Positions 4,206-39,299 of a stretch of 64,000 nucleotides of DNA are shown here, piece by piece. The position numbers were made by a program, and so were the translations under genes. This DNA is from Candidatus Sungiibacteriota bacterium. GTDB taxonomy: Bacteria; Patescibacteriota; Minisyncoccia; Sungbacterales; HO2-52-23. Location of the stretch: NCBI GenBank assembly GCA_016180435.1, contig JACPBG010000004.1, positions 59,660 through 123,659 of the forward strand, in the 5' to 3' direction. Numbering within the stretch: the stretch's first letter is position 1; every line of letters begins with the position of its first letter. Under the pieces are notes generated by a model that searched no databases, was not told the origin of the DNA, and saw only the letters and a program-made list of their open reading frames with translations.

Positions 4206-4787
4206 ATGAATACTTTTTTCGAAAAACTTACCAATTCCAAGCCGCAACCCGTTGCGGCCGATATTGGCGCGGAAGAACGCGATGATGAGGCCGCGGTTGT
4301 TGAAAAAGAAGTTACGCCTTCGCAGCCGTCTCCCAAACGCGCGCCCATGCGTAAAATCGCAGCCCCGGTCCAGCTAAAACCCAAACCAACTCAATTAAAA
4401 GTAGAAAGCGAGGAAGCGGAATCAACGGCAGGGGAGAAAGAAAAAGAACTTGAAGAAGAAGGAGAGTTGACTGTAGATATATATGACAATGGTAATGCTA
4501 TTGTAATTCAATCAACCGTAGCCGGAGTAAAGCCGGAGAATTTGGATGTTTCCATAACAACAGATACCGTGACTATTCGCGGGCGAAGGGAAAAATCCGA
4601 AGAGATTAAAGAAGAACATTATTACTACAAGGAACTTTTTTGGGGTTCTTTTTCCCGCTCGGTCATTTTGCCCGAAGAAATTGATGATACTGCCGCAGAG
4701 GCCGCTTTGAAACACGGCCTTCTCACTATCACGCTTCCGAAGAAAAGAAAAGGAGTGGCGCAGAAACTTAAGGTAAAGGTAACCTAA
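4206..4787 (+). CDS. Hsp20/alpha-crystallin family small heat-shock protein with low-complexity N-terminal extension
   Basis: C-terminal alpha-crystallin-like domain LTVDIYDNGNAIVIQSTVAGVKPENLDVSI...GLLTITLPKK. Confidence 0.8.
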   Translation: MNTFFEKLTNSKPQPVAADIGAEERDDEAAVVEKEVTPSQPSPKRAPMRKIAAPVQLKPKPTQLKVESEEAESTAGEKEKELEEEGELTVDIYDNGNAIVIQSTVAGVKPENLDVSITTDTVTIRGRREKSEEIKEEHYYYKELFWGSFSRSVILPEEIDDTAAEAALKHGLLTITLPKKRKGVAQKLKVKVT

Positions 4788-4958
4788 AAATCGCCATCCG
4801 GCGATTTTTTAGTAAATAAGGGTTGGTGTTTATATGATACTGTTCGGACTCATTTTGAGCAAAATCCCGACTGATTTACCCCTTGCTCGCACTCGGACGG
4901 CTCGGCATTCCTCCCCCCAACCCCCTCCTGCCGAGCCGTCCTCACGGTTGTGGCAGTG
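4782..4958. repeat. left terminal inverted repeat (~177 bp) of a TIR-bounded cassette; contains two strong hairpins (terminator-like, and GGACGGCTCGGCA...TGCCGAGCCGTCC)
   Basis: reverse-complement of 9507-9716 nearly base-for-base (right copy has an extra ~26 bp segment). Confidence 0.85.
4786..4812 (+). terminator. rho-independent terminator hairpin AAATCGCC-atcc-GGCGATTT followed by TTTT; also the outer end of the left terminal inverted repeat
   Basis: stem-loop plus T-run directly after hsp20 stop. Confidence 0.7.
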
Positions 4959-4962
4959 GCAT

Positions 4963-5166
4963 TCACGATTTCAATAAACTAGCTCCAAACTCTGAATGAC
5001 ATTTTACACAAAAACCCTTTAGCGTCATTCCAATTGTGTTAATCTTACCGACACTTTCTTTGTAATAGGTGGTACCCCTTACAATATCGCCACTACATCT
5101 ATCGCAACGTCGAGAAACCCGTGCTTTTGTTTCTTTAAGAAACTTAATGCTATCGTATTTACTCAT
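4963..5166 (-). CDS. small zinc-ribbon protein (CxxC...CxxC), last gene of cassette operon; 4-nt overlap with upstream MTase gene
   Basis: RRCDRCSGD ... CVKCHSEFG cysteine pairs; ATGA overlap at 5163-5166. Confidence 0.45.
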   Translation of the reverse strand: MSKYDSIKFLKETKARVSRRCDRCSGDIVRGTTYYKESVGKINTIGMTLKGFCVKCHSEFGASLLKS

Positions 5167-6014
5167 ACGGATTCAGCAAAAGCGTCCGATAGAATCATTA
5201 CCTCTCTGCCTTTGCGCGATTCATAAGCATTATAGTTGAGAGAAAAACTAACGATTTTTCTTTTTGGATATAATGACCTTATTTCTTTCTTGTTATCGTA
5301 AGTAAGTAACCAGAAAGCATCTCGATTCTCATTAAGTTTTTTTGCAAGTGCTTCGTGATTTTCTTTTTGATAGTGGTTGAGGTAAAGTGTTGCCCCCTTT
5401 TCAAAATAAGGGGGGTCGAGATATATGAAAGAGTTTTTCTTGTCTAAATATTCTTCAATCAATTCAAGGCCATCTTTGTTATATACCGAGATTTTGTCCT
5501 TATATCGGCCAAGTTGTTGGATTTTTTTCACCAAACTTTTCTTATTAAATCTTGCATCAATTTTCCATTTCCCTTTTTGGTTTAATCCACCAATAGGTCC
5601 TCCATCTAAAATCCCGGAAATATTAGTTCTATTTAGAAAAAAGGTTGCAAACCCCAGCTTAAAAAGCCATGATTTTGGATTTTCATAAATTGCCTTTTGT
5701 TTTTTCCATTCGTCAATAGTAATTGGGGTTCTGTAAATCTTCCCTACAAACTTTTCTGAATCAAAAATCGCTGACTGCCAAAACGAGTAAATCGCCCTAT
5801 CAAGATCATTAATCACAATTTTTTTGACCCTGCCAGAAAATAAGAGCGCAAGCGCTGCTCCCGCTCCGCCAGCAAACGGTTCAACGTAAGTGAGATTTTT
5901 CAGACCTTGCTCTTTAATAACTTTTTCAAAAAAGGGCACAAGAGAAGTCTTACCTCCAGGATATCGAAGGGGGCTGTGGTAATTTTTCTGATTTTTGTTC
6001 GTTAGTATTTTCAT
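5163..6014 (-). CDS. Dam-family (D12 class) N6-adenine DNA methyltransferase
   Basis: YPGGK near N-terminus, EPFAGGAG (SAM-binding motif I), IYLDPPYFEKG (DPPY motif IV). Confidence 0.85.
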   Translation of the reverse strand: MKILTNKNQKNYHSPLRYPGGKTSLVPFFEKVIKEQGLKNLTYVEPFAGGAGAALALLFSGRVKKIVINDLDRAIYSFWQSAIFDSEKFVGKIYRTPITIDEWKKQKAIYENPKSWLFKLGFATFFLNRTNISGILDGGPIGGLNQKGKWKIDARFNKKSLVKKIQQLGRYKDKISVYNKDGLELIEEYLDKKNSFIYLDPPYFEKGATLYLNHYQKENHEALAKKLNENRDAFWLLTYDNKKEIRSLYPKRKIVSFSLNYNAYESRKGREVMILSDAFAESV

Positions 6015-6035
6015 TCAATTACATTATACGGCAAT

Positions 6036-6962
6036 TTAAAGCGCCTTCCCATACCTTTGGAGGCGTTTGTAAATAGTCGGTAGTTTGGTTTTAAACCATT
6101 CGCCGTTCCATTCTTGCGCCCAAAAAGCGATGCGACTTCTATCGAAGAGTATGCCGACATCTGGGTAATAAAAATCTTGCCAGTCTGATTCATCAACCTC
6201 GTGAGGAACAAAAAAAGAAAAGATTATCCCCGGCATATCCCAAAAAGAGTAATACTGTTGAAGTTCTTTAATTTCCCGCTTCTTGCTTTTGAAATTGTTT
6301 CCAGCGGCGCATTGGCCAAGTAAAAAGAGCTTACTTTTCCTTCCATCTGGAAAAGGGCGCCAAGCCACAATATCAAGACCGGCATCTTTTTTTTGCGAGG
6401 CATTAGAATTATTTTTAATATCGCCTTCATTAACTTTTATCTTCAAGAACTCCAACGCTCTTCTGAAGGGTTTTTTATCCTGCGTCCATGAATTTCTAGG
6501 TGCGCCAAATTGCAAAGATTGAGCGTTCACCTCTTTACTCGAAAGAAAATTTTCCGCAACCAAGGAAGAAAGTTTCTCAAATAGATCAGAGGTTTTTTGT
6601 TTGTCCCAAACTTTTAGCTCTTTTGCGCCTTTTTCCAGTCCGACATATGACACAAGGAGACAAAATAAATATGCCCAATGATTCTTGTTTGGTTTTTTGT
6701 TTTTCACCTCAACGAGTTTCCCATTGAAACGGAAGGGGTAAACTTTATCCAATTTCCTCAATCGGCTCAATAGTTCGCTTGAGACATCTGTTTTAAGATT
6801 TTCAATTGTTGTTTCTCTGTCTGCATATTCTATCTTTAGCTTTGATGCTAAGTCCTCAATGCTGGACGAGTTATCCTTGTCTAACAACGCGTTTACCTCG
6901 AGCCAGTCGGCAAGCTTAATTTTATTAAGTCGTTCTTTTGGTAGATCAATAACAACAGCCAT
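6036..6962 (-). CDS. hypothetical protein, candidate restriction endonuclease partner of the Dam-like methyltransferase
   Basis: position immediately upstream of the MTase in same operon; no motif I can name with certainty (weak PD-(D/E)xK-like stretch GLDIVAWRPF...LLGQCAAG). Confidence 0.3.
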   Translation of the reverse strand: MAVVIDLPKERLNKIKLADWLEVNALLDKDNSSSIEDLASKLKIEYADRETTIENLKTDVSSELLSRLRKLDKVYPFRFNGKLVEVKNKKPNKNHWAYLFCLLVSYVGLEKGAKELKVWDKQKTSDLFEKLSSLVAENFLSSKEVNAQSLQFGAPRNSWTQDKKPFRRALEFLKIKVNEGDIKNNSNASQKKDAGLDIVAWRPFPDGRKSKLFLLGQCAAGNNFKSKKREIKELQQYYSFWDMPGIIFSFFVPHEVDESDWQDFYYPDVGILFDRSRIAFWAQEWNGEWFKTKLPTIYKRLQRYGKAL

Positions 6963-6968
6963 AGCATA

Positions 6969-8108
6969 TTAATTTTTACCGTTACGCTTTGTTCTCATCT
7001 GTTCTAAAATAGTGTTGGCCAATTCAGCAATTTCCTTCATTTGTTTATAAACCTCCTCGTTTCCTTTATATCGATTTAGATAACCGGCCGTTTTTCTAAG
7101 ATTGTTGAGGGCTTTAAAAACGAAATCTTCCAATTTATAATCCTCTGTATCCGTGTAGGATAAAGCATTTTCGAGTGAAGAAAATTCCTGCGAGTTTTCT
7201 CTTAAGTAGTTTGTAGCCAACTTATGTCCCAGAACATTATCGAGGTATTTCAAATCAGGATTTTGGGATTTAATAACAGATTTTTTAGCGCCATCCTTAC
7301 TCCCAAAGAGAAATTCAAGCAATAACCTAAGATTATTAAAATACTTTCTGGGAACTGGATTTTCAGAAAATATCTCCTTTTGTTTGTTTCTTATACCGAG
7401 ATACTTTCTAGTATTGTCATAACCTAGAATTGTGTAGAGGTGGGAAAAGTAAAATCTTCTCAACTCAACTTCTTCTGCTTTGAAATATCCCTCCTTTTCT
7501 GCCTGCTCTAAAACCCGGAGACCGTTGCACATTTTGATAACGGTCAGGTGTCTGTCTCCGATTCTCTCGGCAATCTTCTCAATCGGTATTTTATATTCTT
7601 TGTGAACCCGAAGTGCATATACGGCCTTACTGTAGGAATCCCATTCTTGTGGGCCATTTATATGCCTAAAGCCCAGATAGGTCCAAAGCGTTTGACGATC
7701 CGGGTATATTGCTACCGGTATCTGTTTAGTAAGTTGTGTCTTTAACTTCTCACTAATCTTTTTTTCTGATTTTAAAAGCGTTTTTATTGCAGCTAATCTT
7801 CTATTACCTTCAATTACAACAAATTTGCCCTTGTGTTTTTTGGATTCAACAGTGAGTAAGGGCTCGGTGTTATAAAAGCCATTTTTTTCAAAGGAATCAA
7901 TCAGCTCGTCCAGATGCATTTCTTTTTGTAGCTTACTAAGAATCTCGTTGTCAGATGCATTTTTTGACAAGCCAGCAAATCGTGGATTCTCGCTATCAAG
8001 TAGCAATCTATCCAACTTAACATAGTTGATTTGGATGGGATCTTGCAGAGTTTTGGTTTTTTGTTCGTTCATATTTTTATTCTTCAGAATATTCCGAATA
8101 CTCATCAA
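6969..8108 (-). CDS. ParB/Srx-like nuclease-domain protein with long C-terminal extension
   Basis: LLLDSENPRF and VIEGNRRLAAIKTLL resemble ParB N-terminal domain boxes (NPR... / (V/I)xEG(E/N)RRxRAA). Confidence 0.5.
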   Translation of the reverse strand: MMSIRNILKNKNMNEQKTKTLQDPIQINYVKLDRLLLDSENPRFAGLSKNASDNEILSKLQKEMHLDELIDSFEKNGFYNTEPLLTVESKKHKGKFVVIEGNRRLAAIKTLLKSEKKISEKLKTQLTKQIPVAIYPDRQTLWTYLGFRHINGPQEWDSYSKAVYALRVHKEYKIPIEKIAERIGDRHLTVIKMCNGLRVLEQAEKEGYFKAEEVELRRFYFSHLYTILGYDNTRKYLGIRNKQKEIFSENPVPRKYFNNLRLLLEFLFGSKDGAKKSVIKSQNPDLKYLDNVLGHKLATNYLRENSQEFSSLENALSYTDTEDYKLEDFVFKALNNLRKTAGYLNRYKGNEEVYKQMKEIAELANTILEQMRTKRNGKN

Positions 8109-9195
8109 GAATTGTATCCGTCATATGTTCCAACCTTTTCTCTTTTGCTAATTCATAAATGGAGTCATAGGGAATATATGAACAGAGCTCCGACAAAGGC
8201 CCTTTCTCCATGACCGCAAAGATTGGGCGAGAAATTTGTTTAAAAACTTCATTTCGTCTGTTGTTGGGCGCAACAATATGAATTTTAATTTCTATATTTG
8301 GCAAAAGAGAAAGTAGATCGGCCATTCTTAAAATACCGGAGTAAATCGACGTCGTTCCCTCAACTTCAAACGCTCGAATTATTGTACGCCCTTGAATCCA
8401 AAGAACGTCGATATTTTTAATCGTTCTTAATGTGATGTCATCAAAAGAAAATGGAAGCTCCTCCAATAAGACATTTTCTTTCGGCTTCCATACTTCTAAT
8501 ACTCCCACGCGATCATTTCTTGGTAACCACACCTTAAAACCTAATTTCTCTCCAATTTCCGAGAGTTTGGCCTGAACCCTGATCGATTCCCGCTCCTCGC
8601 CTACTGGTACTACTTCTTGTGCTTCTTTAGTGGGTTCTTCATCTTCCGGAACTGACACAGAAACTTCCTTTTTGCCAGCCAGACGCATTTTTGAAGATTT
8701 TAATTTCTTTTCATCATTTTCACTAAATTTATATTCAACGAGTTTTTGAGATTGTTCAATGAGTATTTTTTCCAAAAACTCGCAATCGGTTTTTGGCCAC
8801 AAACGAGGACTCGAAAAAATCACATACGTCCATTTGTTGCTATCTTTGGCGAATTCTTTTGTAAAAGAAAGATTATTCCAAATAAAGTCCTCGTGAACAG
8901 GAATCGCTTTTTCAAAAGGTAACCAAACTATAGGTTTTACATTAAAGCGCAAAATAAATGGATCATCTTCTTTTTGAAACAGAGGTGTCTTATCTATAAA
9001 ATATTTACTGGTAATTTCCAAAACACCAACGAAGCGTTGTATCCTTGTTACATAGCAAATAAACTTGTCGCCCGGGCCAATATTTTGATTTTCTACATAA
9101 GTTTTTCTGGAAATCCGAAAACCGCTTACATCCTGTTTGGATTGTTCAAATGCTCGTGCGGTTTCCGGAGAAAATAGATCAATAAAGTAACTCAT
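8077..9195 (-). CDS. EVE/PUA-like N-terminal domain fused to C-terminal putative PD-(D/E)xK-like nuclease domain (type IV / modification-dependent restriction-like)
   Basis: N-term GPGDKFICYVTRIQRFVGVLEITSKYF...DPFILRFNVKPIVWL fits PUA-like beta-barrel pattern; C-term IDVLWIQGRTIIRAFEVEGTTSIYSGILRMADL nuclease-like core; acidic low-complexity linker. Confidence 0.45.
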   Translation of the reverse strand: MSYFIDLFSPETARAFEQSKQDVSGFRISRKTYVENQNIGPGDKFICYVTRIQRFVGVLEITSKYFIDKTPLFQKEDDPFILRFNVKPIVWLPFEKAIPVHEDFIWNNLSFTKEFAKDSNKWTYVIFSSPRLWPKTDCEFLEKILIEQSQKLVEYKFSENDEKKLKSSKMRLAGKKEVSVSVPEDEEPTKEAQEVVPVGEERESIRVQAKLSEIGEKLGFKVWLPRNDRVGVLEVWKPKENVLLEELPFSFDDITLRTIKNIDVLWIQGRTIIRAFEVEGTTSIYSGILRMADLLSLLPNIEIKIHIVAPNNRRNEVFKQISRPIFAVMEKGPLSELCSYIPYDSIYELAKEKRLEHMTDTILDEYSEYSEE

Positions 9196-9197
9196 AA

Positions 9198-9407
9198 CTA
9201 TTTCATTAAATCATCAAGCGATACGCCGAGCGCGTCCGCAATTTTCTTAACCGTCTCAATGGTTGGATTAGGTGTCGTTCCGGCTTCAATCTTGGCGATA
9301 GTATGAAAAGCAAGGTTTGCCCTTTTTGAGAGGACATCTTGAGAAATACCGAGCTTGTTTCGGTATTTCTTTATATTCTCGCCAATTGTCGCTCCTTGCT
9401 TTGACAT
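9198..9407 (-). CDS. XRE-family helix-turn-helix transcriptional regulator (controller-protein-like), first gene of cassette operon
   Basis: LGISQDVLSKRANLAFHTIAKIEAG ... IADALGVSLDDL classic HTH_3. Confidence 0.85.
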   Translation of the reverse strand: MSKQGATIGENIKKYRNKLGISQDVLSKRANLAFHTIAKIEAGTTPNPTIETVKKIADALGVSLDDLMK

Positions 9408-9506
9408 AGTTCGTATAGTTATACTATACTAGTTAGTAGATACTCGTTGGTTTAACTATCACAAGTTTAGTATATGCAATTTTTAGGATTTAATCAATTG
9501 GTTGGT

Positions 9507-9716
9507 CACTGCCACAACCGTGAGGACGGCTCGGCAGGAGGGGGTTGGGGGGAGGAATGCCGAGCCGTCCGAGTGCGAGCCGACCAGCAGGGCGGCGAGC
9601 CAATCAAGGGGTAAATCAGTCGGGATTTTGCTCAAAATGAGTCCGAACAGTATCATATAAACACCAACCCTTATTTACTAAAAAATCGCCGGATGGCGAT
9701 TTTTTAGTAAATAAGG
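9507..9716. repeat. right terminal inverted repeat (~210 bp), outer end is a perfect extended palindrome ccaacccttatttactaaaaaatcgcc-ggat-ggcgattttttagtaaataagggttgg, abutting tRNA-Ala 3' end
   Basis: reverse complement of 4782-4958. Confidence 0.85.
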
Positions 9717-9718
9717 GT

Positions 9719-9789
9719 TGGACCTACGGGGAGTCGAACCCCGACCTCATCCATGCCATGGATGCGTAATGCCGCTTTACTATAGGCCC
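9719..9789 (-). tRNA. tRNA-Ala (anticodon GGC), G3:U70 present, CCA not encoded
   Basis: cloverleaf folds by hand: acceptor GGGCCTA/TAGGTCC, anticodon loop ATGGCAT, T-loop TTCGACT. Confidence 0.85.
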
Positions 9790-10790: not shown

Positions 10791-10900
10791 ATTATTTTTT
10801 TATCCTCAATTCTAAACTTTGCACGAACCCATTTTGAGCATAACCTTGGGCCATAGTGGGCGCAAGGTGACCTCCGCAGCTCACCCAGCCCCGCCATTGG

Positions 10901-10938
10901 CTCCTTTTCAATTAGAAATCAATTTTTGTGGGTTTTGG
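10901..10938. repeat. 38-bp inverted repeat, left copy (tccttttcaattagaaatcaatttttgtgggttttggg)
   Basis: perfect reverse complement at 12105-12142. Confidence 0.8.
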
Positions 10939-11040
10939 GGCGTTACTGACTTGCCGCTAGGTAGGCCGGAGTTACCCGAGTATGATGTATAAAATGATTT
11001 GCCACAAACAAATTTATTGTTACACCCCTGCGAACTAATT

Positions 11041-12048
11041 TTATCGCATTCTTAACTCGCACGCTTCTCGTGAGCTCATGGACTTGCCGTCAACAATAAA
11101 AGAATGTTTTATAAGCGAATTATCAAAGGTGCTGCACGGATTCGGATCAGAATAAGAAGTTTTATAAGCTAGGATACACTTTTTAAAGTTTGGCGCATAA
11201 ACAAAAAGTTCGTTGCAAATAGTCACGTCTCTTGATTTTATGGCGTAAGCAACTATACAAGCACCTGTCGCATCTTCCGGTAAATCGATTTTTATATTGA
11301 GATCATTTTTGGGCTCTGGTCTAATTTTATACTTTGAAGAGGTCAAGCGCGCTACTTCTGGTTTTTGGCACTCAACAACTGATTTTGCGGCATAAATCCT
11401 GTTGTAGAAAATAGCTTCTGCAAAAGTATAGTTAAAAATATATGCCCCCATCAATATTACTATTAAAAATATGAACCCTATTCTGTAGTAAAAAAATGAT
11501 TTTACTTTACTAATACCGGATATAACTCCTGCTACCCACATCATGCCTGCCAGGTAAGCCGTGTATAAAATATAGGACATTGTATTAACTAAATATAAAG
11601 GGGTTTCTACATCAAGAAAGAATTTTAAGTTTTCGGCACCGACTAGAAATATGTTTAACAAATAATGCCTTAAAAGCGTTATGCCGACTCCATCATAAAT
11701 ATTAGAATCTCTAACCGCTGGTATTAAAAGTAGTACCAAGAATAATATTGCTAAAAAATATTTTTTGGTAAGAAATTTTTTAGTTGTAAAAAATATTACT
11801 AGTGCATAACCTACCACAAGTCCAAGATTTATTAAGGCGTTAAATGGAGCCCAAAGAATACTAGGAAACAAGGCTGTGTAAAATACAAATCCACATCCTC
11901 CAAAGGAGCAACCATAATAAATCAAAGGCGCTGAAAGCGCTATAATAAACGAGAAGAAAAACAATCTTTTCCTAGAATATACAAACTTTTCTGTAATAGT
12001 TCCAGTGGACATTAATTTAAGAATAACTTGTCGGTCTTTTATTATCAA
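11041..12048 (-). CDS. AT-rich polytopic membrane protein with Cys-rich C-terminal extracytoplasmic region; hypothetical
   Basis: ~8 TM helices, C-terminal CxxxC-rich tail; markedly lower GC than neighbours. Confidence 0.55.
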   Translation of the reverse strand: MIIKDRQVILKLMSTGTITEKFVYSRKRLFFFSFIIALSAPLIYYGCSFGGCGFVFYTALFPSILWAPFNALINLGLVVGYALVIFFTTKKFLTKKYFLAILFLVLLLIPAVRDSNIYDGVGITLLRHYLLNIFLVGAENLKFFLDVETPLYLVNTMSYILYTAYLAGMMWVAGVISGISKVKSFFYYRIGFIFLIVILMGAYIFNYTFAEAIFYNRIYAAKSVVECQKPEVARLTSSKYKIRPEPKNDLNIKIDLPEDATGACIVAYAIKSRDVTICNELFVYAPNFKKCILAYKTSYSDPNPCSTFDNSLIKHSFIVDGKSMSSREACELRMR

Positions 12049-12104
12049 GTTCCGATTACAAGTCTGGTATATGTGCGGATTAGCTCCACTTTTGCGCTAG
12101 CAAA

Positions 12105-12142
12105 GCCCAAAACCCACAAAAATTGATTTCTAATTGAAAAGG
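12105..12142. repeat. 38-bp inverted repeat, right copy
   Basis: reverse complement of 10901-10938. Confidence 0.8.
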
Positions 12143-12194
12143 AAATTCCGCGCGCCCACCTTCTCCGCTAAAGGCGGGTTGCGGGTTTTTGGAG

Positions 12195-12298
12195 CGAGTC
12201 CCAGCATGATAATACTTTCCCGATTTTTGGGGGAGGTTGCCTCGCCGCTTCGCGGCTCGGCTCGGCGGCTTTGCGCAAGGCGCAAAGCCAAAAAATCC
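12195..12298. repeat. ~104-bp inverted repeat, left copy (upstream of recombinase start)
   Basis: reverse complement of 13775-13876 with few mismatches. Confidence 0.8.
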
Positions 12299-12361
12299 CA
12301 CGGCGCGGAAAACGAAAAGGAAGCGGATAAGGAATATCTAAAATCAATAATTTAAGAAATT

Positions 12362-13972
12362 ATGCTCAAACCAAAATATTTTCTCTACGCTCGCAAGAGC
12401 ACCGAGGATGATGACAAACAAGTAATGTCTATTGAAGCACAGCTTTTTGAATTGCGTGAATTTGCCAAAAGAGAAAATATTGAAATTCTTGAAGAATTTA
12501 CCGAGGCGAAAAGCGCAAAGACGCCGGGACGAGAAGTATTTAATTTAATGATGGGAAAAATTGAAAAATTGGAGGGAGTTGGAATCCTCGCGTGGCACCC
12601 AGATCGTCTCGCTAGAAATTCTGTTGATGGTGGTAAAATCGTTTATTTTGTTGATACGCAAAAAATAATTTCTTTGCGCTTTCCGCAATTTTGGTTTGAG
12701 CCAACTCCGCAAGGGAAATTTATGTTGCAAGTGGCGTTCGGACAGAGCAAATATTTTTCTGACAACTTGGTGGAAAATGTAAAGCGCGGTATCCGCCAAA
12801 AACTCCGCCGTGGCGAGTGGTTGACGCTCGCACCCTTTGGCTATGTGAACAATCCGAAAACGAGACAAATTGAACCGCACCCTACCAAATCAAAAATTGT
12901 CGTGCGAGCGTTTGAGGAGTTTGCCAAAGGAACGCATACGCTCAAAAGTATGTCGGAGTTTTTGGCGGAGCTTGGCGTTGAAACAAAGAACCGAACGCCA
13001 CTTGCGAAATGCAGTATTCACCACTTACTTACCAATCGCGCCTATCTCGGTTTTGTCGCGCACCACGGCGAATATCACGAGGGCACATTTCCGCCAATTC
13101 TTTCCCTCGCAACCTTTGAAGCCGTGCAGGAAGTATTGAAAAGGAAAGCGAAACCTCGCAAATCCAAACAGAGGCACAATTTCCCTTTTACCGGACTACT
13201 CACCTGCGGAGAGTGCGGCTCGGCGATCACCGCGCAATTCGCGCACGGCAATGGCGGAACATATCGCTACTATCGGTGCACGCGGAAAAAGGGAAATTGC
13301 GCTCAAAGATATTTGCGAGAGGATTTACTCGTTTCGCAATTAAAAGCACGGCTTCAAAGCGTTGCGCTTTGCGATGAGTGGATAAAGAAAATGTTAGCGA
13401 AAGTAAATGAATGGGAAAAAGAAAAAGTCCACTCATCGCAAACATTCGTCCAAAATCTGGAAACCAAAAGAACGGCCACGCAAGAGAAACTGGATAAACT
13501 TGTCTCGGCGTATATTGACGGCGACATACCCAAAGAAAACTATTTGAAAAAGAAAGAGGAGTTATTGAAGCAAAAAGTTTCTTTTGCGTCCCAAAAATCG
13601 GATTTTGGACGAACGGGAAAGAATTGGATCGAACCCTTGCGGAGTTGGATTTTAGATATACAGAAAGCCGAAAAATTGTCGCAGAGCGACAATTTTGAGG
13701 ACATTAAGGCGTTTGTCCAAAAAGTTGGAACGAACCATCAACTTTTGGACAAATCCGCTTCATTTTCGTTTTCTGCGCCGTGGGATTATGCGGCTTTGCG
13801 TCTCGCGCAAAGCCGCCAAGCCGAGGGGCGAAGCGGCGAGGCAACCTCCCCCAAAAATCGGGAAAGTATTATCATGTCCCCTCGGGAAGAATTGAACTCC
13901 CATTTTCTCCTTAGGACGGAGACGCTCTGTCCGTTGAGCTACGAGGGGGTTTGGATATTCGCTAAAATATAG
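12362..13972 (+). CDS. large serine recombinase (resolvase/invertase catalytic domain + recombinase domain + zinc ribbon); annotated ORF reads through right repeat and tRNA-Arg so true stop may be as given or protein C-terminus is fortuitous read-through
   Basis: YARKSTEDDDKQ (catalytic Ser region), LAWHPDRLARN, VKRGIRQKLRRGEWLTLAPFGY, CGECGS...YRYYRC. Confidence 0.85.
   Translation: MLKPKYFLYARKSTEDDDKQVMSIEAQLFELREFAKRENIEILEEFTEAKSAKTPGREVFNLMMGKIEKLEGVGILAWHPDRLARNSVDGGKIVYFVDTQKIISLRFPQFWFEPTPQGKFMLQVAFGQSKYFSDNLVENVKRGIRQKLRRGEWLTLAPFGYVNNPKTRQIEPHPTKSKIVVRAFEEFAKGTHTLKSMSEFLAELGVETKNRTPLAKCSIHHLLTNRAYLGFVAHHGEYHEGTFPPILSLATFEAVQEVLKRKAKPRKSKQRHNFPFTGLLTCGECGSAITAQFAHGNGGTYRYYRCTRKKGNCAQRYLREDLLVSQLKARLQSVALCDEWIKKMLAKVNEWEKEKVHSSQTFVQNLETKRTATQEKLDKLVSAYIDGDIPKENYLKKKEELLKQKVSFASQKSDFGRTGKNWIEPLRSWILDIQKAEKLSQSDNFEDIKAFVQKVGTNHQLLDKSASFSFSAPWDYAALRLAQSRQAEGRSGEATSPKNRESIIMSPREELNSHFLLRTETLCPLSYEGVWIFAKI
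13775..13876. repeat. ~104-bp inverted repeat, right copy, lying inside 3' end of recombinase ORF and abutting tRNA-Arg(CCT) 3' end
   Basis: reverse complement of 12195-12298. Confidence 0.8.
13877..13948 (-). tRNA. tRNA-Arg (anticodon CCT); overlapped by 3' end of recombinase ORF
   Basis: cloverleaf by hand: acceptor CCCCTCG/CGAGGGG, D-arm GCTC..GAGC, anticodon loop GTCCTAA, T-loop TTCAATT; backbone very similar to tRNA-Arg(TCT) at 17102. Confidence 0.7.
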
Positions 13973-37407: not shown

Positions 37408-38181
37408 TTGGAGGTACACATGAATGCGCCGAAAGAACTAAAAACTAAAGCGATTTATTTGAGAAAACGTGGTTTGAGTTATAACGAAATCCGACATCAC
37501 GTGCCGGTTGCAAAAAGCACATTAAGCTTGTGGCTTAAAAGCACCCCCCTCTCAAAAGAGCATAAACGTAGATTATATACCAAAAATATTCTTCTTCTTT
37601 CACGCGGACCAAATAGTCAACACGAAAGAAGAAAAAGGGAGATTGAAGCAATCATAGCACGGGCACATAGTGAGATTCATTTGCCGATTCAGCCGGAAAC
37701 ATTCCAGCTTATGGGCGCGGCGTTATATTGGGCAGAGGGAAGCAAGACGAAGAAATTTGAGTTTACAAATTCAGACCCGCATTTTATTCTTTTTATGGTT
37801 AGATGGGCAGAAAAAATTTTTGGTCTTTCCAGTAAAACCTTTAGTGCTACGTTAAATATCTATCCGCAACAAAACGAGGTACGGCTCAAAAAATTCTGGT
37901 CGGAACTGACAAACATTCCATTACATAATTTCGGAAAAAGTTTTGTTAAGCCGCTAAGCAAGAATTACAAGAAAAATAATCTTTACTACGGAACGATAAA
38001 AGTTTATGTGCCGCGAGGTACTGATATGCGTCATCGCGTTTTTGGATGGATTGAAGCCGCCTTGAAAAATATAGAACCGAAAGTAAATTCTATAACCAAG
38101 CGCTGGATATCTTTAAAAAAAACGCCGCGTCCTGTTAATTTATCCCCCCATAACTCAATTGGTAGAGTACCCGCCTCTTAA
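37408..38181 (+). CDS. HTH-containing protein with LAGLIDADG-like motif (homing-endonuclease-like); 3' end overlaps tRNA-Lys
   Basis: N-term HTH LRKRGLSYNEIRHHVPVAKSTLSLWLK; LMGAALYWAEGSK resembles single LAGLIDADG motif. Confidence 0.4.
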   Translation: MEVHMNAPKELKTKAIYLRKRGLSYNEIRHHVPVAKSTLSLWLKSTPLSKEHKRRLYTKNILLLSRGPNSQHERRKREIEAIIARAHSEIHLPIQPETFQLMGAALYWAEGSKTKKFEFTNSDPHFILFMVRWAEKIFGLSSKTFSATLNIYPQQNEVRLKKFWSELTNIPLHNFGKSFVKPLSKNYKKNNLYYGTIKVYVPRGTDMRHRVFGWIEAALKNIEPKVNSITKRWISLKKTPRPVNLSPHNSIGRVPAS

Positions 38182-38216
38182 GCGGAATGTTCCAGGTTCG
38201 AGCCCTGGTGGGGGGA
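38144..38216 (+). tRNA. tRNA-Lys (anticodon CTT)
   Basis: acceptor CCCCCCA/TGGGGGG, anticodon loop CTCTTAA, T-loop TTCGAGC. Confidence 0.8.
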
Positions 38217-38423
38217 AAATGCGGAGCATTTTCCGAGTTCACTTCCTGCTCTCCGTTCATTCATGAACGCAGAAATTGAAGTTAACTCCGGGCTGTGCCT
38301 AGGAGGCACGGAAATGATTGCCATTATTTTCCCCACTTATTGAACGATGCGCGAACTTATAAAAAAATGTGCTTGACTCAAAAAATGCGTATAATATTGA
38401 TATAAATCAAGTATTATAAAAGC

Positions 38424-39299
38424 ATGAAAAAAAATAAAGGGCCGGACAATCAAATTGCAATTTTTGAAAACTTTAAAATCCGCCGTCACTATGACGAAAA
38501 GGCGGAGATTTGGTATTTTTCAGTAATTGACATTATCCGAGTATTGATTGGTCAATCGGGTTATCAAGCCGCCAGAAATTATTGGAAAGTGCTTAAAAGC
38601 CGTCTGAAAACGGAGGGAAGTGAACTGGTTACAAAATGTAACCGGTTGAAAATGACAGCAGAAGACGGAAAGATGAGAGAAACCGACGTTGCAAACATCG
38701 AAACTATTTTACGATTAGTTCAATCCGTTCCTAGTCCAAAGGCCGAGCCGATAAAGCTTTGGCTGGCTAAAGTCGGCCATGAAAGAATTCAGGAGTTGGC
38801 TGATCCGGAAAAATCTTTAAATCGTGCCAGAGAAAATTGGAAAAAGCACGGCCGCAGTGGAAAGTGGATCCAGCAGAGGATGATGGGGCAGGAAACTAGA
38901 AATAAGTTAACTGATTATTGGAGCGGCCATGGCATTAAAGAAAAAGATGAGTTTGCCATTCTTACTAACATCATCCACCGGGAATGGTCTGATTTGACGA
39001 TCAAAGAGCACAAGAATTTGAAAGGTTTGAAAACGCAGAATCTGCGCGACCACATGAATGAAGCCGAACTAATTTTTACGGCTTTAGCCGAGTTGTCCAC
39101 TCGGCAAATCGCGGAAACGACGGAAGCCATGGGCGTAGATGAAAATAAAGTGGCCGGTAAAAGAGGCGGCGGCATTGCTAAGAAAGCGAGAATTGATTTG
39201 GAAAATAAAACCGGAAGGAAGGTGGTCACCGGAGACAATTATTTAAAGAATGCTGAAAGTAAAAAATTGCCGGAACAAGGCGTTCCGGTAAAGCTCTAA
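38424..39299 (+). CDS. Bro-N domain protein (DinD-like / antirepressor-like)
   Basis: IAIFENFKIRRHYDEKAEIWYFSVIDIIRVL matches Bro-N N-terminal pattern. Confidence 0.5.
   Translation: MKKNKGPDNQIAIFENFKIRRHYDEKAEIWYFSVIDIIRVLIGQSGYQAARNYWKVLKSRLKTEGSELVTKCNRLKMTAEDGKMRETDVANIETILRLVQSVPSPKAEPIKLWLAKVGHERIQELADPEKSLNRARENWKKHGRSGKWIQQRMMGQETRNKLTDYWSGHGIKEKDEFAILTNIIHREWSDLTIKEHKNLKGLKTQNLRDHMNEAELIFTALAELSTRQIAETTEAMGVDENKVAGKRGGGIAKKARIDLENKTGRKVVTGDNYLKNAESKKLPEQGVPVKL

Follow-up and report, generated by a model that had tools for sequence, protein, structure and literature searches.

A perfect 38-nt inverted repeat around an orphan membrane-protein gene: candidate inner part of a cargo-flanking repeat in a serine recombinase island at tRNA-Arg

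In the 64-kb stretch of a Candidatus Sungiibacteriota genome analysed here (the window), a membrane-protein gene is enclosed by two perfect inverted repeats and lies directly beside a large serine recombinase (LSR) gene, which raises the question of what the repeats are for. A sequence-only reading of this DNA had taken the arrangement as a sign of recombinase-driven inversion, or phase variation, of a surface protein. The features needed to follow the argument are given below in window coordinates.

10803 to 10845, minus strand: attR-like end of the island, consisting of motif M (promoter-like, candidate P arm of attP) and the GGA core at 10803-10805; directed outward, toward the YdjM gene
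10846 to 10901, no strand: segment A, outer part of the cargo-repeat spacer U; ends in the left half, the loop and the first right-half bases of a 27-nt palindrome, H (10884-10901)
10902 to 10939, plus strand: R38, left arm of the 38-nt perfect inverted repeat; its outer end starts with TCC, the complement of the GGA core
11041 to 12048, minus strand: cargo gene for an orphan polytopic membrane protein with a Cys-rich C-terminal domain (from the open reading frame list, remote relatives and G+C content)
12106 to 12143, minus strand: R38', right arm of the 38-nt repeat; ends in AAAAGGA
12144 to 12204, no strand: segment Y, inner part of spacer U; contig L001 has its reverse complement between A and R38
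12205 to 12328, plus strand: left arm of the repeat IR1 (I); it is the recombinase gene's leader and a candidate P' arm for the internal attP-like site
12362 to 13972, plus strand: LSR gene; with no stop before IR1', the open reading frame continues across the repeat arm and the tRNA gene
13753 to 13876, minus strand: right arm of IR1 (I'), abutting the tRNA 3' end and forming with it the attL-like site
13877 to 13948, minus strand: tRNA-Arg(CCT), the integration target; its last acceptor bases and discriminator (GGA) are the shared core

The repeat, its gene and the neighbouring recombinase

The sequence TCCTTTTCAATTAGAAATCAATTTTTGTGGGTTTTGGG at 10902-10939 (R38) has its exact reverse complement at 12106-12143 (R38'), so that the sequence-only reading was right about a perfect 38-nt repeat and placed both arms, at 10901-10938 and 12105-12142, one base too low. 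The pair cannot be extended, with C at 10901 and A at 12144, and the two arms are the only copies in the 64-kb window when up to three mismatches are allowed. No comparable pair arose in 100 dinucleotide-preserving shuffles of the window, and chance is not expected to produce one. Between the arms lie 1166 nt with a single minus-strand open reading frame (11041-12048), which is the 335-aa membrane-protein gene they had been said to bracket. This length counts from a TTG at 12048; public gene calls begin at an ATG at 12012 and yield 323 aa (P0001). The description of an AT-rich gene for a Cys-tailed protein was also borne out, as the gene has 34% G+C against 45.5% for the window, and six of the eight cysteines of the protein lie in its last ~110 residues, in addition to approximately 5-6 hydrophobic segments.

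The protein has no Pfam match, and in a search among 5.8 billion proteins P0001 matched only itself; its AlphaFold2 model (pLDDT 57.8) was too poor for a fold search. Four remote relatives were found at 26-36% identity. The closest of these, P0122 (loci L087 and L088), is encoded in an ordinary locus after a TraG/VirD4-like ATPase, with neither a tRNA nor flanking repeats, and the repeat is therefore not a trait of this membrane-protein gene family.

The adjoining gene does encode a serine recombinase with an inverted repeat pair of its own. A resolvase domain (PF00239, E=6e-22, residues 7-153) carrying the YARKS motif at residues 9-13 is joined by the C-terminal domains Recombinase (PF07508, E=2e-12) and Zn_ribbon_recom (PF13408, E=3e-12), and this combination of a catalytic domain with a serine nucleophile, a Recombinase domain and a zinc ribbon identifies an integrase-type LSR. 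The exact protein is absent from public collections, and none of the cluster members listed is more than 92% identical to it. Its gene is bounded by IR1, which measures 124 nt at 92% identity (12205-12328 / 13753-13876), and the 3' end of tRNA-Arg abuts the outer end of IR1, from 13877. On the far side of the cargo, a profile of motif M matches 10808-10845 (E=2e-9) in the same position and orientation as S_L in nine related loci, and the GGA is common to the ends of the tRNA-Arg gene and of M. Positions 10803-13876 are thus an island of the LSR family at tRNA-Arg. The same window holds a second island at tRNA-Ala, in which the arms of the cargo-flanking repeat (IR2) are 100% identical (100 + 74 nt, about 175-200 nt overall; 4786-4958 / 9507-9704), and the remnant of a third at tRNA-Lys.

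Site architecture of the island family

Homologues of the recombinase number more than 6500 at 60-91% identity, nearly all of them from Patescibacteria/CPR, and 323 loci of the family were present in the genome collection. IMG/VR held no relative, and annotated phage or plasmid LSRs reach at most 29% identity to the family. An IR1 of at least 50 nt was found in 67 of 80 related loci (range 51-214 nt, median 126 nt, 29 at 100% identity). In 43 of the 80, the outer end of IR1 is no more than 12 nt from the 3' end of a tRNA or tmRNA, many of the remaining loci being cut by contig ends; related contigs frequently end inside IR1. Motif M stands directly upstream of IR1, in sense, in ~58 of the 80 loci, a second and inverted copy occurs 0.2-5.5 kb upstream in 13 loci, and IR2 pairs of 95-207 nt, mostly 98-100% identical, are found in 11 loci. 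The islands of the family carry defence-type and surface-type cargo.

The site features of the recombinase (the M motif, a short core and the I arm) were read from nine related loci. In all nine loci examined, the second repeat pair, IR2, surrounds the cargo, and a core of 4-7 nt, made up of the two final acceptor bases, the discriminator and C(A), is common to the junctions tRNA-core-I, M-core-I and M-core-flank. The blocks AAAGT in M and ACTTT in I are conserved about 22 nt apart, with the centre of the dyad on the core. At the family level, IR1 (I) surrounds the recombinase gene and IR2 (U + M) surrounds the cargo, and the elements of an island are arranged as tRNA end, core, I, recombinase gene, I', core, M, U, cargo, U', M', core, flank. 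By this order each family island contains three sites recognisable from their sequences as attL-like (tRNA-core-I), attR-like (M-core-flank) and, intact and internal, attP-like (M-core-I). As the internal site duplicates both ends of the island in inverted orientation, two inverted-repeat pairs result. We found no description in the literature of an island architecture with an intact internal attP-like site.

The three-domain protein is of the same type as the recombinases of phiC31, Bxb1, A118 and TP901-1, which also integrate site-specifically beside a host gene, and the logic of the sites is similar, with attL (tRNA-core-I) and attR (M-core-flank) sharing a short core and the attP-like site forming a partial dyad on it. 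From its sequence, the family LSR is a predicted attP x attB integrase. In contrast to those systems, the family targets the extreme 3' ends of many different tRNA and tmRNA genes, and an intact attP-like site is kept in the integrated element, with the result that recombinase gene and cargo each lie between long (about 100-200 nt) inverted repeats. No directionality factor (RDF) was identified.

As both modules are bracketed by repeats at what would be their 5' and 3' untranslated regions, a role at the RNA level was considered, in which a transcript across both R38 arms would form a 38-bp terminal stem controlling mRNA stability or translation and IR1 would do likewise for the recombinase mRNA. 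However, the length and sequence of the repeats vary widely among loci and their boundaries track the recombination core, which points to an origin at the DNA level. We consider the RNA-level role highly improbable.

In the window itself, the island departs from the family order on one side of the recombinase gene. The M at the far end is present, and the M expected beside IR1 is missing; in its place, segment Y joins R38' to IR1 through a non-canonical junction, CCCAG/CATG, that has no GGA core. Unitig ends imply that the missing M is present in other samples.

Cassette arrangement in other samples

Logan contigs from 13 independent samples contain the 38-nt pair, with a full R38 copy in contig L001 and 30 nt of R38 in contig L002. 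The latter, recovered from 12 samples, consists of exactly the inner segment with 30 nt from either arm, as expected of a k=31 graph at such a repeat, and by construction it cannot inform on orientation with unchanged flanks. Contig L001, from another sample and at 100% identity, shows the cassette turned around with respect to the flank on the YdjM side. It reads 10805-10901, then GGG, then the reverse complement of 12204-10912, and so presents a continuous 201-nt arm from the core to R38. This opposite orientation indicates at least one recent inversion of the cassette. The breakpoints lie at 10901/10902 and at about 12204/12205, outside the 38-nt arms, and Y (12144-12204) remains linked to the start of the cargo gene in both arrangements.

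These observations bear directly on the proposal of a phase-variable surface protein, in which crossover by the neighbouring serine recombinase inside the 38-nt arms would turn the gene around with respect to a promoter outside them. The proposal draws on the perfect identity of the R38 arms, compared with 92% for the recombinase's own repeat, on the recombinase gene adjoining the cassette, on the occurrence of the cassette in both orientations relative to the flank, and on the GGA/TCC at the end of each arm, the same three bases as the island core. However, the M profile had no match to the R38 arms even at E<100, the similarity of R38 to M (p = 0.25) and to I (p = 0.05) was not significant, and R38 lacks the conserved AAAGT block at -12..-16 from the core, so that GGA alone (3 nt) matches. 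Derivation of an R38 arm from a diverged M or I half-site was rejected on the same grounds, which leaves only the coincidence of the terminal GGA. The outside promoter that had been expected to be engaged in one orientation was not found either: none faces the gene, M (10808-10845) points away from it, and the best promoter-like match for the gene, a candidate promoter at 12048-12020, lies inside the segment. The usual partners in recombination by integrase-type LSRs are attP and attB, and not two identical sites.

The modules of the family also hardly vary in orientation. Recombinase gene and tRNA converge in all loci checked except L050, where the recombinase module is reversed, and no flipping of cargo was seen among 14 related cargo modules, in which homologous genes (mostly an HTH gene) always have the same orientation. 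The locus resembles the Hin/Gin/Cin/Pin inversion systems in having a serine recombinase gene in or beside a repeat-bounded segment, with the crossover core at the outer repeat ends, and the reversed module of L050 adds to this likeness. Those invertases, however, are small proteins of about 190 aa that depend on an enhancer and Fis and act on 26-bp sites, whereas here an integrase-type protein of 500 aa is found with repeats 4-8 times longer, a near-invariant orientation and no recombinase site motifs in the 38-nt arms. The repeat, the gene, the adjacent recombinase and the opposite orientation are therefore real, but with no site motifs in the arms, breakpoints outside them, no facing promoter and a near-constant orientation, a phase switch run by the recombinase is only partly supported, and we consider it quite unlikely.

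The R38-gene-R38' unit behaves as one block in both L001 and L002, which would also suit a MITE-like transposable cassette, non-autonomous and with a passenger gene, that had inserted separately into the island, the R38 arms being its terminal inverted repeats. The perfection of the terminal repeats and the AT-rich orphan passenger agree with such a cassette. Against it, a target-site duplication is absent, the flanks being CATTGGC on one side and AATTCCG on the other, there is no transposase, and the window holds no further copy. A 24-nt stretch from within the arm had no exact match in JGI metagenome contigs, the public contigs recovered with the cargo gene all come from the same locus, and the 201-nt arm of L001 has a length within the IR2 range of the family. 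We regard this origin as very unlikely.

The junctions of the window require separate attention, as public contigs showed neither A to R38 nor Y to IR1, and nothing was found with a composite query, designed for contigs with alternative junctions, that combined all small open reading frames across the junction regions. Both L001 and L003 extend segment A with GGGGCTGGG, which completes palindrome H, and A followed by GGGGCTGGG is thus present in two independent samples. In a k=31 graph simulation run on three candidate genomes, the end of contig L004 (10832) was reproduced only with M-GGA repeated, and the start of contig L005 (13850; 10 samples) only with GGA before the second I copy; the window arrangement fits neither of them. 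Contig L003 (SRR4343430) passes 10832 and stops at the end of palindrome H, as predicted by neither model, and this stop means either that samples differ or that coverage is uneven. Derivation of the window from L001 by one conservative exchange was also tried and fails, as 3-5 nt (GGG/CCCC) are unaccounted for and CCCAG/CATG has no GGA core.

The junctions at 10901/10902 and 12204/12205 could accordingly be an assembly error or a rare variant, in which case the true genome would have canonical long repeats and the short 38-nt repeat would be partly an artefact. The missing junctions, set against the two samples with A and GGGGCTGGG, the unitig ends that fit GGA-type models and not the window, and the tendency of long perfect repeats to break or confuse assemblers, with many related contigs ending in IR1, all argue in this direction. 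However, a de Bruijn assembler needs reads containing the junction k-mers ATTGGC/TCCTTTTC and cannot create them, the 38-nt pair itself occurs in 13 samples, and the disagreement between public samples (L003 and L004) suggests real structural heterogeneity. We consider an assembly error or rare variant unlikely.

Origin of the repeat and meaning for CPR genomes

The reading that we favour, with moderate confidence, is that R38 is the innermost part of the cargo-flanking IR2 of an LSR-built island at the 3' end of tRNA-Arg(CCT), a structural by-product of island construction rather than an expression switch run by the recombinase; in the window genome it may be all that remains of IR2. The 201-nt arm of L001 falls within the IR2 length range of the family. 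In other samples of the same strain, IR2 would either have its full 201 nt (M + A + H + Y + R38) or consist of R38 directly next to the core, and in the window the outer parts of the arms would have been rearranged at the GC-rich palindrome H, leaving only the inner 38 nt still paired. The inversion most likely took place through rare homologous or illegitimate recombination, or through action of the recombinase on its own core sites, rather than by a crossover inside the 38-nt arms. The free form of the element would probably be circular and contain a ~300-nt repeat, comprising attP and the promoter, in two inverted copies, of which integration splits only one, and excision would leave the empty attB tRNA-GGA-TAAAAAAATAAT.

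Several observations weigh on the other side. The right arm of a full IR2 is on no contig and is deduced from unitig ends. The 38-nt pair is perfect beside diverged outer sequence and a 92% IR1, which could mean active homogenisation, and this would favour an active inversion system. A free circular form was sought in short, high-copy contigs and none was found, L089 and L090 being ordinary integrated copies; this counts against a circle-based origin.

The putative circle, in which two long inverted repeats, each with a recombination site, would separate a recombinase segment from another unique segment, would be analogous to the yeast 2-micron plasmid (FLP, two 599-bp inverted repeats), with the differences that no circle has been observed for the family, that FLP is a tyrosine recombinase and that 2-micron does not integrate. 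Cargo islands at tRNA genes, sometimes in tandem, recall other tRNA-targeting islands, including tycheposons, which are reportedly tRNA-targeting, cargo-carrying genomic islands. Classical tRNA islands have direct repeats of the 3' part of the tRNA and mostly tyrosine integrases, whereas the present family shares only a 4-7 nt core and its conspicuous repeats are inverted and internal.

Extended to the whole group, a more tentative possibility, which we think less likely to hold than not, is that CPR bacteria share small mobile units with two inverted ~300-nt repeats of attP and promoter, 2-micron-like but integrating at any tRNA or tmRNA 3' end with one copy split and one intact. The internal attP-like site would let recombinase and cargo modules flip, swap or chain without a directionality factor (through attP x attP exchange, for instance, or homologous exchange among related units). 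This would build the alternating chains of modules that are seen beside tRNAs, three of them in this window, and the 38-nt-flanked cassette would be one such cargo module, exchangeable and invertible, observed in both of its orientations.

How CPR/Patescibacteria, with their tiny genomes, exchange genes is poorly understood. The recombinase family, which has over 6500 close homologues and accounts for three islands or remnants within a single 64-kb window, is among the most abundant mobile-element genes of CPR. If shown, the intact attP-like site, and with it the construction of the islands from repeat-bounded modules, would explain the frequent breaks of CPR contigs beside tRNAs and the places where accessory genes enter CPR genomes. 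It would also account for a natural serine-integrase architecture in which every insertion contains a ready landing pad, and which may interest genome engineers. For the R38 cassette itself, the island reading puts a testable structural account in place of a weakly supported phase-variation story.

Perfect 38-nt inverted repeats around a rare membrane-protein gene

The sequence-only reading had described a perfect 38-nt inverted repeat bracketing a membrane-protein gene, next to a serine recombinase gene with an inverted-repeat pair of its own, and each of these elements was confirmed, with the 38-nt arms lying one base higher than had been reported.

Features at the 38-nt repeat
10902-10939 and 12106-12143, inverted: arms of the perfect 38-nt repeat
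11041-12048, minus strand: cargo ORF, 335 aa from TTG, the only ORF in the 1166-nt inner segment
12205-12328 and 13753-13876, inverted: IR1 (arms I and I'), 124 nt, 92% identity, bracketing the recombinase gene
12362-13972, plus strand: large serine recombinase (LSR) gene, with Resolvase, Recombinase and Zn_ribbon_recom domains, adjoining the cassette on its right
13877-13948: tRNA-Arg(CCT), its 3' end exactly where the right arm of IR1 stops

The 38-nt arm occurs only twice in the 64 kb at up to three mismatches, and no such repeat arose in 100 shuffles of the window. The enclosed gene (34% G+C, against 45.5% for the window) starts in public gene calls at an ATG at 12012, giving a protein of 323 aa (P0001) with approximately five to six hydrophobic segments and eight cysteines, six of them within the C-terminal ~110 residues. 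A Pfam search yielded no match, and among 5.8 billion proteins the protein matched only itself, while an exhaustive HMMER scan recovered four remote relatives at 26-36% identity. The nearest of these (36%) is encoded in locus L087, directly 3' of a TraG/VirD4-like coupling ATPase with a treble-clef zinc finger (L087 6270-8984), a neighbor suggestive of a function related to DNA transfer in this rare family. It is unlikely that the 38-nt arms are the termini of a nested MITE-like cassette, as there is no target duplication at the flanks and no further copy in the window, and a 24-nt stretch taken from the arm matched no JGI metagenome contig exactly; in addition, the public contigs recovered for the gene all come from this same locus, and the nearest relative of the protein resides in an ordinary locus without repeats. 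An RNA-level role of the terminal stems is considered very improbable.

The adjacent gene encodes a bona fide large serine recombinase, the exact sequence of which was absent from the protein collections searched. Its ORF has no stop codon before I' and continues through I' and then antisense across the whole tRNA-Arg gene (13753-13972), so that the last ~70 residues are set by the repeat and the tRNA and are probably non-functional.

A recombinase family at the 3' ends of tRNA and tmRNA genes

More than 6500 homologues of this recombinase were found, almost all in Parcubacteria/Patescibacteria metagenome bins, the 120 best being 60-90% identical. When one genome per species was scanned, 323 loci emerged, and 80 of them were fetched for analysis. 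An IR1 of at least 50 nt surrounds the recombinase gene in 67 of the 80 (median 126 nt, range 51-214 nt; 29 pairs are 100% identical), and at 43 loci the downstream arm has the 3' end of a tRNA or tmRNA gene no more than 12 nt from its outer end; many of the other loci are truncated by contig ends. At least 15 tRNA isoacceptors and two tmRNAs serve as targets. The first bases of IR1 are those of the adjacent tRNA (the last two of the acceptor stem, the discriminator and C(A)), and they recur in the upstream arm. Directly outside the upstream arm is a conserved motif of ~35 nt, M (TTCAAAATGGGTTCGnGCAAAGTTTAGAAT), which looks like a sigma-70 promoter directed at the recombinase gene and has a conserved spacer as well as promoter-like features; its profile matches upstream of the recombinase in sense orientation at approximately 58 of the 80 loci.

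The recombinase gene is convergent with the tRNA at all loci checked except L050 (2254-3880), where it is co-directional and directly 3' of the tRNA (tRNA-Glu, core, I, LSR). In L070 (1832-1905, a Paceibacteria bin), the island adjoins a tRNA with anticodon TTA, reported as "tRNA-Stop", possibly a suppressor tRNA or a sign of recoding. A tmRNA gene adjoins the island in L076 (1871-2274). L089 (691-2319), a variant standing for 189 member sequences with tRNA-Pro at its 3' end, has neither the upstream arm nor M, and therefore some copies lack the internal attP-like site described below.

A second, inverted copy of M was detected with the profile 0.2-5.5 kb further upstream at 13 loci, and BLAST delineated long second repeat pairs (IR2) at 11 loci (95-207 nt, mostly 98-100% identical). 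The cargo between the IR2 arms usually includes an XRE-type HTH gene toward the recombinase side, and homologous cargo genes, mostly this HTH gene, have one orientation throughout the 14 cargo modules compared. In all nine IR2-type loci examined, three boundaries share a core of 4-7 nt: tRNA-core-I (attL-like), M-core-I (attP-like, internal and intact) and M-core-flank (attR-like). The three island boundaries in these nine loci follow the attachment-site logic of serine integrases. The motifs AAAGT in M and ACTTT in I, both conserved, lie ~22 nt apart as a dyad centered on the core, which is consistent with M and I as the arms of an attP. The internal attP-like site thus repeats both ends of the island in inverted orientation, and this accounts for IR1 and IR2. 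The simplest inferred origin is a free circle with a ~300-nt repeat (U-M-core-I, U being the spacer between M and the cargo) in two inverted copies, only one of which would be split on integration; this would reproduce the observed order exactly. In L010, L023 and L056, the flank of the attR-like site is another I sequence, which suggests chains of modules. On direct reading, U (window 9507-9627; L008 7703-7790) contains a 13-bp GC-rich stem with a G-tract loop, e.g. GGACGGCTCGGCA...GGAGGGGGTTGGGGGGAGGAA...TGCCGAGCCGTCC, a hairpin that recurs across different islands though the sequence is not conserved.

Three islands or remnants in the window and the identity of the 38-nt repeat

The matches to this architecture fit three representatives of the family in the window.

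Islands of the recombinase family in the window
Island 1, 10803-13876: at tRNA-Arg, holding the 38-nt repeat in its cargo part; attL-like end formed by I' and tRNA-Arg
10808-10845, minus strand: M of island 1 (profile E=2e-9), the attR-like end with core, toward the YdjM gene
10803-10805: GGA core of island 1, beside M
Island 2, arms 4786-4958 and 9507-9704: 100% identical over 100 + 74 nt, ~175-200 nt overall
9719-9789: tRNA-Ala(GGC), target of island 2
4959-9506: cargo of island 2 (4.5 kb), with a D12 adenine methyltransferase, two unknown proteins, an EVE-domain protein and an XRE HTH protein
38143-38450: third remnant, at tRNA-Lys(CTT), with an M-like site at 38331-38360 (E=8.5e-4)

Island 2 has a perfect 27-nt hairpin (9664-9721) in place of the recombinase module, overlapping the 3' end of tRNA-Ala. 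In the third remnant, the M-like site is convergent, ~113 nt past tRNA-Lys, with degenerate inverted arms between them; the neighboring gene starting at 38425 is, by eye, putatively Bro-N/antirepressor-like.

Short Logan contigs of this locus were recovered from other sequencing runs through exact look-up of neighboring proteins and are 100% identical to the window over their overlaps. L002 (12 samples) spans the inner segment and extends 30 nt into each arm, which shows that the repeat is real and is silent on orientation, because any 38-nt repeat yields such a contig at k=31. In L001 (SRR12113429), 10805-10901 is followed by GGG and next by the reverse complement of 12204-10912, such that the cassette and segment Y (12144-12204) are jointly inverted with respect to the YdjM flank. 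This junction completes a 27-nt GC-rich palindrome, H, CCCAGCCCCGCCATTGGCGGGGCTGGG (L001 positions 80-106; in part at window 10884-10901), and L003 (SRR4343430) has the same junction of segment A (10846-10901) with GGGGCTGGG. L001 contains an unbroken 201-nt stretch of GGA core, M, A, H, Y and the 38-nt arm up to its inner end, a length inside the IR2 range of the family.

Unitigs at k=31 were simulated for three candidate genomes. L004 ends at 10832, exactly as a full 201-nt IR2 requires (M-GGA repeated elsewhere in the sample), and L005 (10 samples) starts at 13850, exactly as predicted if GGA stands before the second copy of I; such a start agrees both with the full model and with a short one in which the right 38-nt arm, ending ...AAAAGGA, directly abuts I. 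The window arrangement gave a simulated start at 13847 for L005 and no break at 10832. L003 runs past 10832 and ends exactly at the end of H, and therefore the samples differ among themselves; H is perhaps a hot spot of rearrangement, or coverage may drop out there.

The 38-nt pair is best read as the inner end of IR2, or as the whole of IR2 under the short model. The outer portions of both arms would have been rearranged at H in the window genome: Y is missing from the left arm, and the right arm is without the GGA core, M, A and the remainder of H. H is intact in other samples and split in the window, with both window breakpoints inside it. Derivation of the window from L001 by one conservative exchange fails, as 3-5 nt are unaccounted for; the window junction CCCAG/CATG also lacks the core, and the window arrangement is therefore not a canonical recombinase product. 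Neither window junction was found in public contigs, and the arrangement is possibly a rare variant or a local misassembly, a question of which the existence of the 38-nt pair is independent.

Inversion of the cassette and the wider island architecture

The sequence-only reading had proposed recombinase-driven inversion at the 38-nt arms and phase variation of a surface protein. In its favor, the arms are perfectly identical, each with GGA at its end, the recombinase adjoins the cassette, and L001 attests to at least one recent inversion relative to the flank. Crossover by the recombinase within the arms is not supported: the observed breakpoints fall outside the arms, the M profile fails to recognize the arms, their similarity to M (p = 0.25) or I (p = 0.05) is not significant, and the conserved AAAGT block is absent from them at the right distance. 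Integrase-type LSRs normally recombine attP with attB rather than identical sites. The suggestion of an outside promoter engaged in one orientation was not upheld, as M is directed away from the cassette, Y remains joined to the start of the gene in either arrangement, and the sole promoter-like match for the cargo gene lies inside the segment. Module orientation is moreover nearly invariant across the family. Given the arm motifs, breakpoints, promoter direction and orientation, we regard phase variation as improbable; rare RecA-type exchange across the 38 perfect base pairs is possible.

The islands match the attachment-site logic of phage-type serine integrases but differ from them in targeting the very 3' terminus of tmRNA and of many tRNAs, in keeping an internal attP-like site, which results in long inverted repeats around recombinase and cargo, and in being confined to CPR, where copy numbers are very high. 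The family shares at most 29% identity with annotated phage and plasmid LSRs, and no description of the architecture was found in the literature searched, including a recent paper on Patescibacteria genomic islands. The 38-nt repeat is probably a by-product of this island architecture, which is the more interesting result.
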